Below are positions 4,341 to 49,310 of a stretch of DNA of 64,000 nucleotides, piece after piece. The notes under the pieces were generated by a model. It searched no databases, was not told the origin of the DNA, and saw nothing but the letters and a program-made list of their open reading frames with translations. Every line of letters begins with the position of its first letter. Positions within the stretch are counted from its first letter, which is position 1. The translations under genes were made by a program, and so were the position numbers. Source of the stretch: Escherichia coli (GTDB lineage Bacteria > Pseudomonadota > Gammaproteobacteria > Enterobacterales > Enterobacteriaceae); assembly GCF_044324785.1 (NCBI RefSeq), contig NZ_CP172127.1; one strand, 5' to 3'.

Positions 4341-7245
<2,905 letters not shown>

Positions 7246-40669: not shown

Positions 40670-41128
40670 TTAGCGTCTGGCTGGATAATGTTGGATGCTG
40701 GATTCCAGATTTGCCAGGATCAAAGCGACATCGGCATCCGCCAAACGAAATTCCGCCTGCCATATATTCTCTGACGTATGAAATGTAGGGCATAGCCCGC
40801 AAGCCAGTATCACTTTGATAATAATGACATCACCGGAATACCCTGTGTATTCGAACTCCAGGCATGGCTCGGTAAATTCCAGATTTTTCTCCGGGTAGCC
40901 ATCGGGAGAAGGGCGCTGCAACAATGTGGTAAACCACCTATGAAGCTTTGTTAAGTCATATGTCCCTATTGCCGGATCTATCTTTTCAAACCGCTGATTT
41001 CCCTGCGTCACGCCCACTTTGAGGAATAACCAGTTACCATCCCAGAAATTACTGGCATCAGGATACTGATACCCCATAACATCCAGCGTCAAAGTAACGG
41101 CCAGCTCACTATTGCTTAACGTAATCAT
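40670..41128 (-). CDS. Hypothetical 152-aa cytoplasmic protein between pldA and recQ
   Basis: Intact ORF with ATG start, no obvious SD, own terminator; no recognisable motif. Confidence 0.5.
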   Translation of the reverse strand: MITLSNSELAVTLTLDVMGYQYPDASNFWDGNWLFLKVGVTQGNQRFEKIDPAIGTYDLTKLHRWFTTLLQRPSPDGYPEKNLEFTEPCLEFEYTGYSGDVIIIKVILACGLCPTFHTSENIWQAEFRLADADVALILANLESSIQHYPARR

Positions 41129-42729: not shown

Positions 42730-43620
42730 ATGGATGCAAAACAAACGCGGCAGGGCGTATTACTCGCTCTTGCCGCTTATTTTATTTGGGGTATTGCGCC
42801 AGCGTACTTCAAGCTGATTTACTACGTGCCCGCCGATGAGATCCTGACGCATCGCGTGATCTGGTCGTTTTTCTTTATGGTGGTGCTGATGAGCATCTGC
42901 CGCCAGTGGTCCTATTTAAAAACGCTGATTCAGACGCCACAGAAAATTTTTATGCTGGCAGTCTCTGCCGTGCTGATTGGTGGCAACTGGCTACTGTTTA
43001 TCTGGGCGGTGAACAATCACCATATGCTGGAAGCGAGCCTTGGTTACTTTATTAACCCGCTGGTGAACATTGTGCTGGGGATGATTTTCCTCGGCGAGCG
43101 ATTCCGCCGGATGCAATGGCTGGCGGTGATTCTGGCGATATGTGGCGTGTTGGTTCAGTTGTGGACTTTTGGTTCACTGCCGATTATCGCGCTGGGGCTG
43201 GCGTTTAGTTTTGCCTTCTACGGCCTGGTACGCAAGAAGATTGCTGTTGAAGCGCAAACCGGCATGTTAATCGAAACTATGTGGTTGCTGCCCGTGGCGG
43301 CGATTTACCTGTTTGCTATTGCCGACAGCTCAACCAGCCATATGGGGCAAAACCCGATGTCACTGAATTTACTGCTGATCGCCGCCGGGATTGTCACTAC
43401 CGTACCGCTGTTGTGTTTTACTGCGGCTGCGACACGCCTGCGTCTCTCAACGTTAGGCTTTTTTCAGTACATTGGCCCGACGCTGATGTTCCTGCTGGCT
43501 GTGACGTTTTATGGTGAAAAACCGGGTGCCGATAAGATGGTGACCTTCGCCTTTATTTGGGTGGCGCTGGCAATTTTTGTGATGGATGCGATTTATACGC
43601 AGCGTAGAACGTCCAAATAA
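42730..43620 (+). CDS. rarD: EamA/RarD-family membrane transporter
   Basis: 296-aa polytopic ORF. Confidence 0.85.
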   Translation: MDAKQTRQGVLLALAAYFIWGIAPAYFKLIYYVPADEILTHRVIWSFFFMVVLMSICRQWSYLKTLIQTPQKIFMLAVSAVLIGGNWLLFIWAVNNHHMLEASLGYFINPLVNIVLGMIFLGERFRRMQWLAVILAICGVLVQLWTFGSLPIIALGLAFSFAFYGLVRKKIAVEAQTGMLIETMWLLPVAAIYLFAIADSSTSHMGQNPMSLNLLLIAAGIVTTVPLLCFTAAATRLRLSTLGFFQYIGPTLMFLLAVTFYGEKPGADKMVTFAFIWVALAIFVMDAIYTQRRTSK

Positions 43621-43714: not shown

Positions 43715-44095
43715 ATGTTACGTATGTTTATCCCAACATCTAATGGTAAGATTTCCAGACGCCGTTATATATTTTCATTTATTTTAATAAATTTCATTTT
43801 TGCCTTTCTTATTATCTTTTTTAACGATGGGGAAGCAGATTTTCTTGTTATAGTCTCTACCATCGTACTCCATTATCTCGTCATCAACTTGAATTGCCAA
43901 CGACTCCGTGATAGTGGTTTCGTCTATATAAAAACTTATGTTTTTGGTACATTAGCAGTATATATCATCTCTATCATCACAATGATAGCCGAAGATTTTG
44001 CCTGTTCAGGCAATGGTTCGATGATTTTTTTGATTTGTTATTTTTCCACTTTCAGTATGCTAATGCTTGCACCTACTGATTCATCAAAACAATAG
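43715..44095 (+). CDS. yigF: Small inner membrane protein YigF (DUF2628)
   Basis: [22 protein letters not shown]..., AT-rich, two TM segments. Confidence 0.75.
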
Positions 44096-44108
44096 TTATG
44101 GAGTATTT

Positions 44109-44489
44109 ATGAGTAAGGAATATATGAACGATGGTTCATTAAGTGAAAAATGGAAATACCGATTTAATTTTTATGATCAACATGGCTTTCCAGGATTCTG
44201 GGGGGCAACACCAGAATATAAAGCAGCATTTAAAACATTAAAAGTAAGACAACGATTAACTATTCAAATGAATTTCATTGCTTTCTTCTGTTCCTGGATC
44301 TATTTATTTGTTCTGGGATTATGGAAAAAAGCAATTATAGTTCTATTACTTGGCATTCTATCTCTATTTGTTGGTGCACTAATTGGCGTTAACATTCTGG
44401 GAATTGCCGTAGCAGCCTATGTTGCTGTTAACACGAACAAATGGTTTTATGAGAAAGAGGTAAAAGGGTTAAATACCTGGAGCCTTTGA
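44109..44489 (+). CDS. yigG: Small inner membrane protein YigG (DUF2628)
   Basis: MSKEYMNDGSLSEKWKYRFNFYDQHGF...; paralogous architecture to yigF. Confidence 0.75.
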   Translation: MSKEYMNDGSLSEKWKYRFNFYDQHGFPGFWGATPEYKAAFKTLKVRQRLTIQMNFIAFFCSWIYLFVLGLWKKAIIVLLLGILSLFVGALIGVNILGIAVAAYVAVNTNKWFYEKEVKGLNTWSL

Positions 44490-44529
44490 ATAACAGGTGG
44501 CTTAGCCAGGCTAAGCCACCGCCTTCTTT

Positions 44530-44672
44530 TTACAACCAGTTCTTCCGCTTAAAGTACAGATACGGTGCCAGGCCCGCGAGGATCATAAAGATAATCGCGC
44601 CAGGGTAGCCGAAACTCCACTTCAGTTCCGGCATAAACTCAAAGTTCATGCCATAGCTGGAGGCAATCCGCG
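44530..44672 (-). pseudogene. Diverged duplicate of the corA 3' end (last ~47 codons)
   Basis: ~143 bp at ~95% identity to 46241-46383; encodes the same ...[44 protein letters not shown] with only synonymous changes; homology begins exactly at the stop codon. Confidence 0.8.
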
Positions 44673-44856
44673 TAGGAAAAAGTTTCCTAATCGGTAAATT
44701 CAACATTTTGTTATTAACAATGAGCAAGACCAATCATTAACGACGTTCTCTTCAGAGATGTAATGAAAAAATGTGAAGTGTACTTCTTTTCTAAATATTT
44801 TTTTACCCTAGCATTTGTTCTCGAATTGATATTGAGCTTAAATATAACTAAGGCAA

Positions 44857-45711
44857 ATGCAAATGAATAACATATTACTTCCGCCAATTAATATTCCCTG
44901 TACACTTTTCGAAACTATTAGTTTATTCGATGATTTTTCTGCTGATGATATGCAATATGGTGATATGGTAGAACAAGACTTTCTCTCACTCGGCCTAAGC
45001 GATATCTCAGCAAAAGTTGATCCTTACCGACTTATTAAATACCATTTCCCTGGCCCAGGTTCTATTAATGTTGCTTTTAGTGCCTCAAGTTCCGGAACAA
45101 AAATATCACAACGTGAATGCACTGATATTTTATTTGCAGAAATGAAAGAACTAGCAAAAATGTTTTCCTTTTTTGGACAATATAAAACACTTATCGAAGA
45201 TCTGATTGAAAATTTTAGATATGGAAATGGCAGCAATTTTCATAGCCAACAATTAAATTTATCTTTTCATGAAAAAATAAATAAATATGGTTATAATAGT
45301 CCAATACGAATAATCAAAGAATGTATCGAAAATGGCATTAATTCAACTCCCTCGACAGGATACCAACCTCTTATCCTGCAAAGCATTAAAACCAAATTAC
45401 TTTCATCAAGACTAAATAAATTTAATGACTTCAAGGACAGTTTTAATGGCTTAGGAATCAGTGTTCATGATATTTCAGCTCAAAAAATATCTCTTTTAAG
45501 TTTTCAAAAATACGCTATAGGATGGAGTGCAACAATTCATTTTGTAGCACAGGACCACTTCGGTCTCGATGTAACTGATATCAAAAACAAGACTTATAGC
45601 AAATATAGATTTTTTCGCATATGGTTCTTTTTACAACGGCATAAAGACTTTGCTTTCAAACCTTTTTTCACCAATTTTAACACTATAGAAAGAATCGAAA
45701 ATTATCTATGA
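44857..45711 (+). CDS. Hypothetical 284-aa protein, AT-rich, no signal peptide; candidate effector/toxin-like protein
   Basis: Intact ORF in low-GC DNA inside the corA-repeat-bounded insert; stop overlaps the start of the next gene (ATGA). Confidence 0.5.
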   Translation: MQMNNILLPPINIPCTLFETISLFDDFSADDMQYGDMVEQDFLSLGLSDISAKVDPYRLIKYHFPGPGSINVAFSASSSGTKISQRECTDILFAEMKELAKMFSFFGQYKTLIEDLIENFRYGNGSNFHSQQLNLSFHEKINKYGYNSPIRIIKECIENGINSTPSTGYQPLILQSIKTKLLSSRLNKFNDFKDSFNGLGISVHDISAQKISLLSFQKYAIGWSATIHFVAQDHFGLDVTDIKNKTYSKYRFFRIWFFLQRHKDFAFKPFFTNFNTIERIENYL

Positions 45712-46199
45712 AAAGCAAACTCCAGAAAATTATATTATGTTTATTTCTTCTATGCTGCATCTATAATTTATGGACATTGCGTCCTGTACAGATTTTGTAT
45801 ACATACTCTGATGCTGGCAATTCAGTCTTTCTGGTCGTTGATCATCTGCCATGGACTGACAGCGATAAAATAAATTGGTATCTGAAGCATCAGAATGAAA
45901 TTAAAAATCAACATCCCCTACCAGAAGGTAGTTGGCATACCTGGTATGTCATTGATATCGGTAATGGCTTCACTGACTATAAAAAATATATTGAAGGGCC
46001 GTATGAAGATCTCTACTGTTTCCCGACAATTAAGAGCAATGATAATTGCATCGTGAAAAATTACTTAATGGTTATTAATGAATACCCTTATCGTAACACT
46101 CATATTGGTATTAACGATTTTACTGAGTATCAATTAACACAAGAAAATAAAATAGAGCGAGTTTTCAATCCGCATGACTTTAAAAAAGACAATTTTTAG
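45708..46199 (+). CDS. Hypothetical 163-aa protein with N-terminal signal peptide/membrane anchor; candidate periplasmic immunity-like partner
   Basis: N-terminal hydrophobic KIILCLFLLCCIYNLW; translationally coupled to the upstream gene. Confidence 0.5.
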   Translation: MKSKLQKIILCLFLLCCIYNLWTLRPVQILYTYSDAGNSVFLVVDHLPWTDSDKINWYLKHQNEIKNQHPLPEGSWHTWYVIDIGNGFTDYKKYIEGPYEDLYCFPTIKSNDNCIVKNYLMVINEYPYRNTHIGINDFTEYQLTQENKIERVFNPHDFKKDNF

Positions 46200-46240
46200 A
46201 AATAAGCCGGATAAAAAAATAGCTTTATCCGGCACTCATA

Positions 46241-47191
46241 TTACAACCAGTTCTTCCGCTTAAAGTACAGATACGGTGCCAGGCCCGCGAGGATCATAAA
46301 GATAATCGCGCCTGGGTAGCCGAAACTCCACTTCAGTTCTGGCATAAACTCAAAGTTCATCCCGTAGCTGGAAGCAACCAGCGTCGGTGGCAGGAACACC
46401 ACGGATACCACCGAGAAGATTTTGATGATGCGGTTCTGCTCGATGTTGATAAAGCCCATAGCCGCCTGCATCAGGAAGTTCACCTTCTGGAACAGGGATT
46501 CGTTATGCGGCAGCAGGGATTCGATATCTCGCAGGATTTCACGCGCCTGCTCCAGTTGCCCACCCGGTAAGCGTGCTTTACGTACCAGGAAGTTGAGCGC
46601 GCGCTGGGTATCCATCAGACACAGGCGAACTTTCCAGCCGATATCTTCCAGTTCCGCCAGCGTGGAGAGCGCCTCGTCGTACTCATCGCCCTGATGCCCT
46701 TCCATAATTACCCGGCTCAACTGCTCCAGGTCGCTGTAGATATTTTCAATTTCATCTGCCAACTGTTCGATTTTGGTTTCGAACAGATCCAGCAGCAGCT
46801 CGTAGGCATTACCGTCTACCATCGACTGGCTACGGGCACGCATACGATACAGACGGAATGCAGGCAATTCACGCTCACGCAGAGTAAACAGACGACCATC
46901 ACGGATGGTAAATGCCACAGTGGAGTTACCGGCGTGATCTTCCGCATCTTCAAAGAAGAAGAAGGAGTGAATATGCAGGCCGTCATCGTCTTCAAAGAAA
47001 CGTGCCGATGCTTCGATGTCTTCCAGTTCCGGGCGGGTTGCCAGGCTCTGGCCAAGTTCAGATTGTACGCGCAGTCGCTCGTCGTCGTCCGGTTCGACAA
47101 GATCAATCCATACTGCATTTACAAGGGGTTGTGACTCTTCGACTTCCAGCCGGGTCAGTCGGTTATTTTCCAGTTGAAATGCGCTCAGCAT
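46241..47191 (-). CDS. corA: Magnesium/cobalt transport protein CorA
   Basis: [19 protein letters not shown]..., 316 aa, GMN motif ([12 protein letters not shown]). Confidence 0.95.
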
Positions 47192-48407: not shown

Positions 48408-49310
48408 ATGAAAAAAACGCTCGCAACGTTATTTTTATTAACGTGTCTGGGATCATCATCCGCTTATGCGGATAACGCTTTGATTTTACAAACTGATTTT
48501 AGCCTGAAAGATGGTGCCGTCTCGGCGATGAAAGGGGTCGCATTCGGTGTTGACCATAATCTTAAAATATTTGATTTAACACACGAAATTCCACCGTATA
48601 ACATCTGGGAAGGCGCTTACCGCCTGTATCAGACCGCCAGTTACTGGCCGCAAGGTTCGGTATTTGTCAGTGTGGTCGATCCTGGTGTTGGTACAGACCG
48701 TAAATCGGTAGTGCTGAAAACCAAAAACGGTCAATACTTCGTTTCACCAGATAACGGTACGCTCACTTTGGTGGCACAAACTCTGGGTATTGATAGCGTC
48801 CGGGAAATCGACGAAAAAGCTAACCGCCTGAAAGGTTCTGAAAAGTCATATACCTTCCACGGTCGTGACGTGTATGCCTACACCGGTGCGCGTCTGGCTT
48901 CCGGGGCGATTACGTTCGAACAGGTGGGGCCAGAGCTTCCTGCAAAAGTTGTCGAACTTTCTTATCAGAAAGCAAAAGCAACAAAAGGTGAAGTGAAGGG
49001 CAATATCCCGATTCTCGATATTCAGTACGGCAACGTCTGGAGCAATATCAGCGACGAGTTGCTGAATCAGGCAGGAATCAAACTCAACGACACGTTGTGT
49101 GTGACCATTTCCGAAGGTTCCCAGCAAAAATACGCAGGGAAAATGCCGTATGTCGCAAGCTTCGGCGATGTGCCGGAAGGCCAGCCGATGGTGTATCTGA
49201 ACAGCTTGTTGAATGTTTCCGTGGCGCTGAATATGGATAATTTTGCGCAGAAACATCAGGTTGCGTCTGGTGCTGACTGGAATATTGATGTGAAGAAGTG
49301 CGCTAAGTAA
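48408..49310 (+). CDS. Secreted DUF62-family protein (SAM hydroxide adenosyltransferase/halogenase-like fold)
   Basis: Signal peptide MKKTLATLFLLTCLGSSSAYA; motifs TDFSLKDGAVSAMKGV, DLTHEIPPYNI, VVDPGVGT, VSPDNG resemble the DUF62 family as I recall it. Confidence 0.65.
   Translation: MKKTLATLFLLTCLGSSSAYADNALILQTDFSLKDGAVSAMKGVAFGVDHNLKIFDLTHEIPPYNIWEGAYRLYQTASYWPQGSVFVSVVDPGVGTDRKSVVLKTKNGQYFVSPDNGTLTLVAQTLGIDSVREIDEKANRLKGSEKSYTFHGRDVYAYTGARLASGAITFEQVGPELPAKVVELSYQKAKATKGEVKGNIPILDIQYGNVWSNISDELLNQAGIKLNDTLCVTISEGSQQKYAGKMPYVASFGDVPEGQPMVYLNSLLNVSVALNMDNFAQKHQVASGADWNIDVKKCAK

Follow-up and report, generated by a model that had tools for sequence, protein, structure and literature searches.

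Background

Phage 21 and e14 integrate into the icd gene of Escherichia coli, and the displaced 3' end of icd remains as a pseudogene. Homology-facilitated illegitimate recombination and the circularization of linear DNA followed by a single crossover have both been described in E. coli, the latter being about 10 times commoner than the former in the experiments (Amarir-Bouhram et al. 2011, PMC3240628); de Vries and Wackernagel 2002 and Prudhomme et al. 2002 are further studies of illegitimate recombination, as cited in PMC5361080. In the type VI loci of Vibrio cholerae, effector-immunity modules are displaced or stacked, and rhs loci undergo C-terminal displacement (Kirchberger et al. 2017, PMC5361080). 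DUF3289 and DUF943 have been characterized as a colicin-M-like toxin/immunity pair, with an immunity role for the DUF943 family (Geller et al. 2024, PMC11148199), and a toxin function of DUF3289 has been described for an Aeromonas jandaei effector of the type VI system (PMC12135965). For such family members, toxicity in the periplasm, protection by the immunity protein and export by type VI secretion have been demonstrated (PMC11148199, PMC12135965).

The window analyzed here is a stretch of 64,000 nucleotides of E. coli DNA (contig NZ_CP172127.1) in which the 3' end of corA, a housekeeping gene for a magnesium transporter, occurs in direct orientation on either side of a DUF3289-DUF943 gene pair. 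This arrangement is a widespread, ordinary scar and not an active mobile element.

Results and discussion

The rarD-corA locus

The RefSeq annotation used here comes from the same locus of strain N3, which is 99.9% identical. The features are as follows (T1 and T2 denote the two terminator-like hairpins).

42730-43620, plus strand: rarD, a 296-aa ORF annotated as rarD by RefSeq in N3; left conserved border of the variable slot
43715-44095, plus strand: yigG, from the RefSeq annotation of the N3 locus; NCBIfam PRK11371
44109-44489, plus strand: yigF, from the RefSeq annotation of the N3 locus
44496-44520, no strand assigned: T1, terminator-like hairpin common to yigF and corA', with an 11-pair stem including 7 GC pairs
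44530-44676, minus strand: corA' (copy A), an orphan stretch of the last 143-147 nt of corA including the stop, 136/143 identical to 46241-46383; pseudogene
44665-44692, no strand assigned: illegitimate junction, with an 11/14 patchy match to corA, about 16 nt, and then the upstream spacer of the cassette
44863-45711, plus strand: DUF3289 / YPO3983-family gene, 282 aa; TIGR03034, 436 bits; Pfam DUF3289, 3.8e-83
45708-46199, plus strand: DUF943 gene, 163 aa, with a hydrophobic N-terminal segment; Pfam DUF943, 1.8e-26
46206-46233, no strand assigned: T2, terminator-like hairpin between the DUF943 gene and intact corA; -15.5 kcal/mol, z -3.8 to -5.3
46241-47191, minus strand: corA, intact ORF of 316 aa, RefSeq WP_000947159.1; its last 143 nt (46241-46383) are copy B

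The folding energy of T1 is -20 to -22 kcal/mol (z -3.8 to -4.1, with the stem scored on both strands), in agreement with the first-pass annotation of this DNA, which had recorded a terminator-like hairpin beside one of the repeat copies; in K-12, the alignment places T1 after the intact corA. T2, which belongs to copy B, is a second hairpin that was overlooked in that annotation. It accompanies the cassette in the cassette-bearing E. coli types that were aligned and is conserved in EDL933 and ST38.

Comparison of the fetched loci revealed that the gap between rarD, which is kept in every locus type examined, and corA is a variable slot that accommodates alternative small AT-rich modules. The K-12-type module is the yigG-yigF pair (32-36% GC), which in K-12 directly adjoins corA; ST131 carries a diverged yigG-yigF, and EDL933 and S87 carry a third module with a distant yigG homolog. 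The fourth form of the slot, the DUF3289-DUF943 cassette, is found in Salmonella arizonae, diarizonae and salamae and in one ENA contig, where it lacks the corA repeat and is flanked only by core genes, with no integrase. In S87, the third module meets the intact corA at the same stop-codon boundary that delimits the repeat described below, which indicates that gene ends act as recombination arms for the slot. BS-04 (L024), a candidate for a further locus type, was set aside because homopolymer errors suggest a low-quality assembly. Literature searches for corA, rarD and yigF together, and for DUF2628, yielded nothing relevant.

Extent and divergence of the corA repeat

Both copies of the repeat are on the minus strand. 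In the pairwise alignment, positions 44530-44672 and 46241-46383 are identical at 136 of the 143 sites (95.1%), which confirms the first-pass observation; a repeat search extended the match to 152 nt at 93% identity. A chance origin is excluded given that no other direct repeat in the 4.5-kb region exceeds 19 nt. As had been noted from the sequence, the homology starts precisely at the TAA stop codon of corA in both copies (TTACAACC on the plus strand), and the flanks beyond it are unrelated. Their translations agree over the last 44 residues (45 codons including the stop), somewhat fewer than the approximately 47 first claimed. Beyond the 143 nt, copy A retains a patchy similarity to corA until about position 44676 (GCAAtCcGCGTaGG versus GCAAcCaGCGTcGG, 11/14), giving the repeat a ragged inner end without a sharp core site. 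The cassette-free K-12, ST131 and S87 each have a single copy of the corA end, so that the first-pass observation withstands the refuting condition attached to it.

The differences between the copies had been described as exclusively synonymous, which is correct for five of the seven; the other two, which change amino acids (L to R and V to I), are the ones closest to the junction. Random substitutions in this part of corA would be synonymous in only about 20% of cases, which indicates that the differences date from functional genes rather than from decay of the fragment. Four of the five synonymous differences (A72, C99, G120 and A123) also occur in a sample of 22 full-length corA genes from E. 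coli, in line with the initial interpretation of the repeat as the scar of a recombination that paired two different corA alleles. The K-12 corA allele resembles corA', and the allele of the cassette-free ST131 and S87 resembles copy B. The divergence between the copies is that of allelic variation within E. coli (about 3%) and not the distance to a foreign species.

The corA' fragment as a pseudogene

RefSeq labels copy A as [quoted passage not shown]. Among 27 copies of this fragment from other strains, at least six amino-acid-changing variants were detected, including S to G (11/27), A to T (10/27) and Y to D within the YGMN motif, along with one frameshift. In full-length E. coli corA, by comparison, 14 of the 16 variant sites are synonymous, and the CorA protein accession is identical in most annotated strains (WP_000947159.1 is common to N3, K-12, EDL933, ST38, ST131 and others). 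corA' is a non-functional pseudogene relic that is under relaxed constraint relative to intact corA.

A functional role of the fragment has nevertheless to be weighed, given that it contains a 67-aa mini-ORF (44530-44733, minus strand) with a TTG start whose frame is intact in most of the strains sampled, and that it is kept in 1,709 genomes. The encoded peptide, comprising the CorA GMN motif and the last membrane helix, might modulate CorA, or else the fragment might serve the cassette as a regulatory or terminator element. We regard either role as most improbable: amino-acid changes are common in the fragment, one of them in YGMN itself, in contrast to the mostly uniform full-length protein; 931 genomes that retain the cassette have lost the fragment; no convincing ribosome-binding site or promoter was apparent by eye, and a promoter scan gave fewer consensus sites than shuffled sequence.

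The DUF3289-DUF943 cassette

The product of the DUF3289 gene matches TIGR03034 over its full length with a score far above the cut-off of 156 bits, and shows similarity to the C-terminal domain of BtpeA (PDB 9jdi) at the levels of sequence (phmmer, 6.5e-6) and structure (Foldseek, 5.9e-5). The AlphaFold model of this protein is poor (mean pLDDT 63), with 9jdi as the sole meaningful structural match; matches to colicin M in the search with this model were not significant. No signal peptide was evident by eye. The start of the DUF943 gene overlaps the stop of the toxin gene by 4 nt. By analogy with the characterized family members, DUF3289 is a predicted colicin-M-like toxin acting in the periplasm and DUF943 is its putative cognate immunity protein. 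The pair resembles the previously described pair (PMC11148199), the Aeromonas jandaei effector (PMC12135965) and BtpeA-BtpiA of Bacteroides fragilis (9jdi) in the Pfam families, the gene order and the gene overlap. Unlike in those toxin systems, DUF3289 here stands alone, as a 282-aa protein that consists of the domain only, far from secretion genes in the examined stretch.

No recombinase was identified in or beside the 1.57-kb insert, where the only genes between the repeats are DUF3289 and DUF943 and the neighbors are yigF and corA; the insert also contains no transposase and is not bracketed by inverted repeats. Apart from secondary IS1 insertions, all fetched cassette-bearing E. coli loci contain the same compact two-gene insert, and the insert was not found on true plasmids or phages.

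These observations bear on the possibility that the locus is the remnant of a site-specific island of the phage 21/e14 kind that entered the 3' end of corA, used a corA tail as attP and subsequently lost its integrase. The formal anatomy is the same as at icd: the insert lies between directly repeated copies of a housekeeping gene's 3' end, with homology from the stop codon, the gene itself is intact, and the differences between the copies are mainly synonymous; the low GC content of the cargo also fits. However, the icd elements are many-kilobase prophages with an element-encoded integrase and a defined core site, in contrast to an insert of two genes, without a recombinase gene or remnant between or beside the repeats, and with a ragged inner boundary (11/14). 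Furthermore, the cargo at corA is an old resident of the same slot in other enterobacteria, being present without repeat or integrase in three Salmonella subspecies and the ENA contig; all fetched E. coli loci are compact, save for secondary IS1; the cassette has persisted in 931 E. coli genomes that lost the fragment; and the cassette carriers match one junction and its deletion derivative, by totals. We therefore consider an island origin very unlikely, and the first-pass proposal of an integrating element that targets a gene end and supplies a replacement is not supported, considering the lack of a recombinase, the Salmonella cassettes without a corA repeat and the absence of the insert from true plasmids and phages.

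The junction in E. coli genomes

In a survey of 5,426 complete E. coli genomes, the cassette was detected in 2,632. The exact corA'/cassette junction is present in 1,709 of the surveyed genomes, including EDL933, O104:H4 and E. coli B, with 93.6-100% identity whatever the left module (98% in EDL933). Another 931 genomes have a deletion derivative (d-type) that keeps the cassette but has lost the fragment and the junction; here, a 5' remnant of yigG is fused about 19 nt inside the cassette spacer, at the same point in the 4 strains sampled. The sum of the two classes, 2,640, is close to the 2,632 cassette carriers, an agreement of totals, the genome sets having been compared by totals only. Within the same scope, no "pure" rarD-cassette-corA allele is apparent in E. 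coli. The identity of the junction across left modules, together with this near-equality, points to a single origin, with the cassettes of E. coli apparently derived from one event that formed the junction. This event is ancient, fixed in about a third of the sequenced E. coli, and not strain-specific.

A candidate source for the approximately 16 nt at the junction, the EDL933-type 3' tail of rarD (GCGTAG-AAAAAGTT), which would make the junction a corA::rarD join, was rejected: the alignment, scored by hand, reached 11.5, within the range of shuffled sequences (mean 9.5, maximum 12.5). The upstream spacers of the cassettes outside E. coli (Salmonella and the ENA 60% locus) are too diverged, such that nothing aligned and no donor-type spacer was recovered.

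Origin of the duplication

One side of the scar is a duplicated homology arm and the other a non-homologous junction, and there are neither bracketing inverted repeats nor a target-site duplication. Most likely, two alternative slot modules were stacked by one illegitimate join and one homologous crossover in corA. Under this scenario, two forms of the slot would have been joined in series by a single ancient event in the E. coli lineage. The segment concerned would begin about 190 bp before DUF3289, take in the cassette with its terminator and end with the last 143 bp of the neighboring corA. It would have been closed or joined illegitimately at the patchy 14-nt similarity with corA around codon 271, and would then have entered the chromosome by homologous crossover within the 3' end of corA. 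The segment may have been a circularized fragment that underwent Campbell-type integration; alternatively, the event may have been a one-sided, homology-facilitated illegitimate recombination; the DNA that came in might then have been yigG-yigF with a corA tail, anchored in rarD. By either route, corA would remain intact and use the terminator on the cassette side, and the 143-bp corA tail would be stranded by the terminator on the yigF side. The Campbell-type integration of a circle with corA homology, which had been suggested as the second possible source of the repeat, is compatible with the anatomy of the scar and is the route favored in the E. coli experiments (PMC3240628).

Like the experimentally described events, the proposed one combines a homologous exchange with an illegitimate join, inserts non-homologous DNA, traps a gene fragment and involves no mobility genes. 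The described events, however, were observed in the laboratory at about 1e-9 to 1e-10 per cell, whereas at corA only an ancient product is seen, and canonical events, unlike the one at corA, usually delete recipient DNA and leave no 143-bp duplication.

The newcomer could be the cassette or, equally, the yigG-yigF-corA' half. The SNP haplotypes are mosaic, with G120/A123 and C120/G123 each found with and without the cassette; the native copy is not readable from the SNPs because later recombination scrambled the haplotypes.

The same junction would also result from a local tandem duplication running from the cassette spacer to about codon 271 of corA, which would yield the order cassette-corA'-junction-cassette-corA, followed by replacement of the left cassette with yigG-yigF or the third module via the rarD and corA' arms. 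Swapping at the left position did occur, as b- and c-type loci share one junction with different left modules, and the corA' of EDL933 carries two stop-proximal SNPs, G5 and G15, the first of which recurs in corA of S87, another carrier of the third module. Nevertheless, we consider a tandem origin unlikely, because it calls for at least one extra step and no genome with two tandem cassettes was found. The sole contig that links DUF943, corA, the junction and DUF3289 (L043) was not accepted as a sign of a circle or a tandem array: its initial 823 bp match nothing in the E. coli locus and look LINE-1-like (mammalian) by eye, indicating a chimeric assembly.

As regards the stacking of two modules by a join and a crossover, 143 bp is a short homology arm for a single crossover, which counts against this explanation.

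Remodeling of the locus and implications

Two later rearrangements are apparent. In the EDL933 type, the left module was swapped, with rarD and corA' as homology arms; the ST38 type lost 888 bp comprising most of yigG and the whole of yigF, T1 and corA'. RecA-dependent recombination between the two repeats could still delete or amplify the cassette while leaving corA unharmed; such scarless loss, predicted from the 143-bp repeats, may matter for strain differences in bacterial competition. An origin of the empty K-12-type locus by pop-out between the repeats is compatible with the data, which are not diagnostic in this respect.

The locus resembles the Vibrio cholerae type VI and rhs loci in that toxin/immunity modules are added next to a conserved anchor, older ones are kept, and orphan 3' pieces persist as scars. 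The anchor in Vibrio cholerae and rhs loci, however, is an effector or secretion gene within a secretion cluster, as opposed to corA, an unrelated housekeeping transporter gene, and the neighbor retained here is yigG-yigF, to which no function is assigned. A more tentative idea, which we consider rather doubtful, is that duplication of the corA tail created a second docking boundary and hence an integrase-free array of two positions, in which small modules coding for membrane proteins or toxin/immunity pairs (yigG-yigF, the third module and DUF3289-DUF943) are swapped independently by homologous recombination, with yigG-yigF and the yigG-like third module as orphan immunity-type genes. If it were real, such an array would be a housekeeping-gene-anchored counterpart of the type VI/rhs immunity-gene arrays.

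The corA scar itself opens no long-standing question. It is a natural example of the duplication of a housekeeping-gene end without a mobile-element enzyme, and cautions that a gene-end duplication need not be an integrase att site. It further suggests that the E. coli copies of a recently characterized toxin/immunity pair descend from one recombination event, and it accounts for the pseudogene that annotation pipelines list in about one-third of the complete E. coli genomes, including those of O157:H7 EDL933, O104:H4 and strain B.

Repeated corA 3' end and the genes between its copies

The region belongs to the Escherichia coli chromosome (99.9% identity to strain N3 across 3.7 kb), with the plus-strand order pldA(-), yigI, rarD, yigG, yigF, partial corA(-), YPO3983/DUF3289, DUF943, intact corA(-), ysgD and yigE. 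The first-pass annotation, made from the sequence alone, reported ~95% identical direct repeats of the corA 3' end, and alignment bears this out (136/143 identical positions). The relevant features are:

44496-44520: hairpin beside copy A
44530-44672, minus strand: copy A (corA'), an orphan corA 3' end, labeled in RefSeq [quoted passage not shown]
between the copies: the cassette, two overlapping genes (DUF3289 and DUF943)
46206-46233: second hairpin, belonging to copy B
46241-46383, minus strand: copy B, the terminus of the intact 316-aa corA

The similarity begins at the corA stop codon, as claimed, with unrelated flanks past the stop, and the terminator-like hairpin noticed in that reading is real. 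In a repeat search over 4.5 kb, the pair could be extended to 152 nt at 93% identity, and the next direct repeat spanned only 19 nt. Beyond the repeat, a patchy 11/14 match (GCAAtCcGCGTaGG versus GCAAcCaGCGTcGG) continues up to approximately 44676, where similarity ends. The copies had been thought to differ at synonymous sites only; this holds for five of the seven differences, but the two closest to the inner edge alter residues (L to R and V to I), so that the common peptide consists of the final 44 residues rather than about 47.

The cassette genes have a GC content of approximately 25-38% and are flanked by rarD and corA at about 50%. The first encodes a full-length member of the TIGR03034/YPO3983 family (436 bits; Pfam DUF3289, 3.8e-83) and the second matches DUF943 (Pfam, 1.8e-26). 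A DUF3289 domain with a colicin M-like structure shows periplasmic toxicity in E. coli, yielding round cells, and is neutralized by its DUF943 partner (Geller et al. 2024, PMC11148199); in Aeromonas jandaei, a DUF3289 protein has been verified as an effector of type VI secretion (PMC12135965). The predicted model of the toxin encoded in the window is poor (pLDDT 63), and its sole meaningful structural match is a solved Bacteroides fragilis effector-immunity complex (9jdi).

Phage 21 and e14 leave a displaced 3' end of icd, which the anatomy of corA' mimics. A gene-end-targeting element had been proposed, along with a search for its integrase. Annotation, ORFs and the repeat search revealed no recombinase or transposase between the copies and no insert-bracketing inverted repeat. 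Given that an element-encoded recombinase defines the phage 21/e14 type, an integrase-borne island at the corA 3' end is the weakest option.

Organization of the rarD-corA slot in E. coli

The variable gap between rarD and corA (hereinafter, the slot) takes several forms.

Forms of the rarD-corA slot in E. coli
Type a (K-12): rarD-yigG-yigF-corA
Type a2 (ST131): as type a, with yigG-yigF ~89% identical
Type b (the window, E. coli B): yigG-yigF-corA'-cassette-corA
Type c (EDL933): a different 1-kb AT-rich module (the third module), then corA'-cassette-corA
Type d (ST38 and others): rarD, then a 5' remnant of yigG joined straight onto the cassette spacer, without corA'
Type e (S87): an internally deleted third module abutting intact corA

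The 301 genomes that match the b-type query over 80% or more of its length are of type b. The third module has its own hairpin beside the corA stop and contains a 128-aa ORF, unannotated in RefSeq, which is a distant homolog of yigG (28% identity, E 4e-6) with a weak DUF805-like motif. Small membrane-protein modules of unassigned function seem to be interchangeable occupants of the slot. A similar AT-richness is observed in yigG-yigF (43715-44489; 32-36% GC), the EDL933-type module (positions 5079-5980 of its own locus) and the toxin cassette.

The corA'/cassette junction is common to types b and c (98% identity). Type d lacks ~19 nt of this junction and retains a piece of yigG; it therefore derives from a b-like ancestor by an 888-bp deletion rather than being a precursor, and the d junction is identical in four strains whose cassettes are 8-12% diverged. 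Among 5,426 complete genomes, 2,632 contain the cassette (at least 80%), 1,709 the corA'/cassette junction and 931 the d junction; the latter two sum to 2,640, so that, by a comparison of totals alone, a single corA' junction or its derivative covers essentially every E. coli cassette. By the same comparison of totals, no "pure" rarD-cassette-corA allele was found in complete E. coli genomes, which mildly favors the cassette having entered a yigG-yigF-type chromosome only once.

The cassette alleles themselves are mosaic: the ST38 toxin gene is ~10% diverged from that in the window and its immunity gene is nearly identical, and in CM2 and P4, both genes differ from window 44700-46240 (DUF943, 165 aa). 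This mosaicism suggests diversification or exchange inside the toxin/immunity pair. In some lineages, the cassette is undergoing inactivation: several strains carry IS1 in the cassette or its upstream spacer (for example, L026, 3252-3949), and STEC388 additionally has a frameshift in the toxin gene.

Origin of the corA' scar

The repeat was correctly observed, and its interpretation as an integration product is half right: a recombination scar attributable to homology-driven joining of two corA alleles stands, the footprint of a gene-end-targeting mobile element does not. The product combines two slot forms at an illegitimate joint: one contributes its left side, from rarD through yigF with the terminator and the final 143 nt of that form's corA, and the other its right side, comprising spacer, cassette, terminator and corA. 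Three routes could yield it. In a Campbell-type route, a spacer-cassette-corA tail fragment would circularize and integrate through one crossover within the 3' end of corA. In the second, one-sided homology-facilitated illegitimate recombination would be anchored either in corA, with the cassette incoming, or in rarD, with yigG-yigF-corA' incoming. In E. coli conjugation experiments, partial degradation, ligation and a single crossover led to a phenotype matching that of one-sided illegitimate recombination, at about ten times its frequency (PMC3240628); because of this difference in frequency, the Campbell-type route is favored. The third route, local tandem duplication with subsequent replacement of the left cassette copy, gives the same product, but no tandem-cassette intermediate was found.

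A metagenome contig considered as a tandem or excised circle (L043, 1-2369; OGLD01003261.1) is a chimeric assembly, almost certainly an artefact of assembling across the 143-bp repeat. Its first 823 bp have no match to the E. coli locus and look mammalian LINE-1-like by eye; E. coli DNA follows, in the order DUF943-spacer-corA repeat-junction-DUF3289.

The process in the slot resembles one proposed for Vibrio cholerae type VI clusters and rhs loci, in which effector-immunity modules are stacked and leave orphaned 3' pieces behind (PMC5361080), except that here the anchor is an unrelated housekeeping gene. The corA'/cassette scar is ancient, widespread and mechanistically ordinary; corA' was already known as an annotated pseudogene, and a literature search found no publication on this scar.

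Variation and fate of corA'

The last 135-180 nt of corA were tabulated for 22 full-length copies from E. coli together with 27 fragments; besides the window and RefSeq loci, the sources were 23 metagenome contigs retrieved by the junction pattern. Four of the five synonymous differences between the copies (A72, C99, G120 and A123) also occur in full-length corA genes, and G132 is confined to fragments. Only 20% of the possible substitutions in this stretch are synonymous, compared with five of the seven seen, so the variation originated in functional genes, as the first-pass annotation had surmised. Copy A is similar to the K-12 allele, and copy B belongs to an allele family shared with the cassette-free ST131 and S87. 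The proposed comparison of corA ends to identify the native copy, run on E. coli sequences, gave no assignment: at about 3%, the copies are no further apart than alleles of one species, and their haplotypes are mosaic, so that neither copy can be labeled "native" or "foreign".

Residue changes in the 27 fragments include S to G (11/27), A to T (10/27), Y to H, G to A, Y to D within the YGMN motif, R to P and one frameshift; CorA itself (WP_000947159.1) is identical in N3, K-12, EDL933, ST38, ST131 and others. By this pattern, corA' is a decaying pseudogene. The stop-proximal 72 nt (44530-44601 and 46241-46312) are identical between the copies in the window, and at the variable offsets 5 and 15, the copies agree in three distinct b-type strains (window/N3, E. 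coli B and STEC388) but not in EDL933. This agreement hints at gene conversion between the repeats.

Cassette and corA segments beyond the E. coli locus

Scanning of species-representative genomes and look-ups of more distant homologs revealed the order rarD-DUF3289-DUF943-corA in four loci outside E. coli, namely Salmonella enterica subsp. arizonae, diarizonae and salamae and one ENA contig (toxin 60% identical to that in the window). The four toxins are 60-65% identical to that in the window, and the Salmonella rarD, corA and uvrD 90-98%. The corA fragment is absent from all four loci, where the slot is bordered by core genes alone. Judging from these comparisons, the cassette is an old resident of the slot. 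No true plasmid carriage was found: plasmid records that span most of the query are limited to those of 1.0 Mb and 4.8 Mb, apparently mislabelled chromosomes, and the only cassette record in the phage collection is a 582-kb Salmonella houtenae contig.

The E. coli corA-ysgD segment has itself been relocated, to chromosomal islands, with partial yigE and beside IS1 copies (L014, 3501-4549; L015, 3501-4527), and to conjugative plasmids of Salmonella, E. coli and Enterobacter, including R27 (L051, 3001-4049) and pHCM1. The moved segment keeps 76-98 bp of cassette-side spacer and hairpin, which indicates capture from a cassette-bearing E. coli.

Neighboring gaps vary as well. In the recQ-pldA gap, a 152-aa ORF (40673-41128, minus strand), which matches the WapI-like immunity protein family (Pfam 6.6e-22) and is named "WapI family immunity protein" in RefSeq, is a second orphan immunity-type gene near the slot; this position has no annotation in K-12, EDL933 and ST38. 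A gene of the SAM hydrolase/SAM-dependent halogenase family (48408-49310) occupies the yigE-uvrD gap in the window, EDL933, ST38 and ST131 and is missing in K-12, where uvrD directly follows yigE, another presence/absence difference a few kb away.
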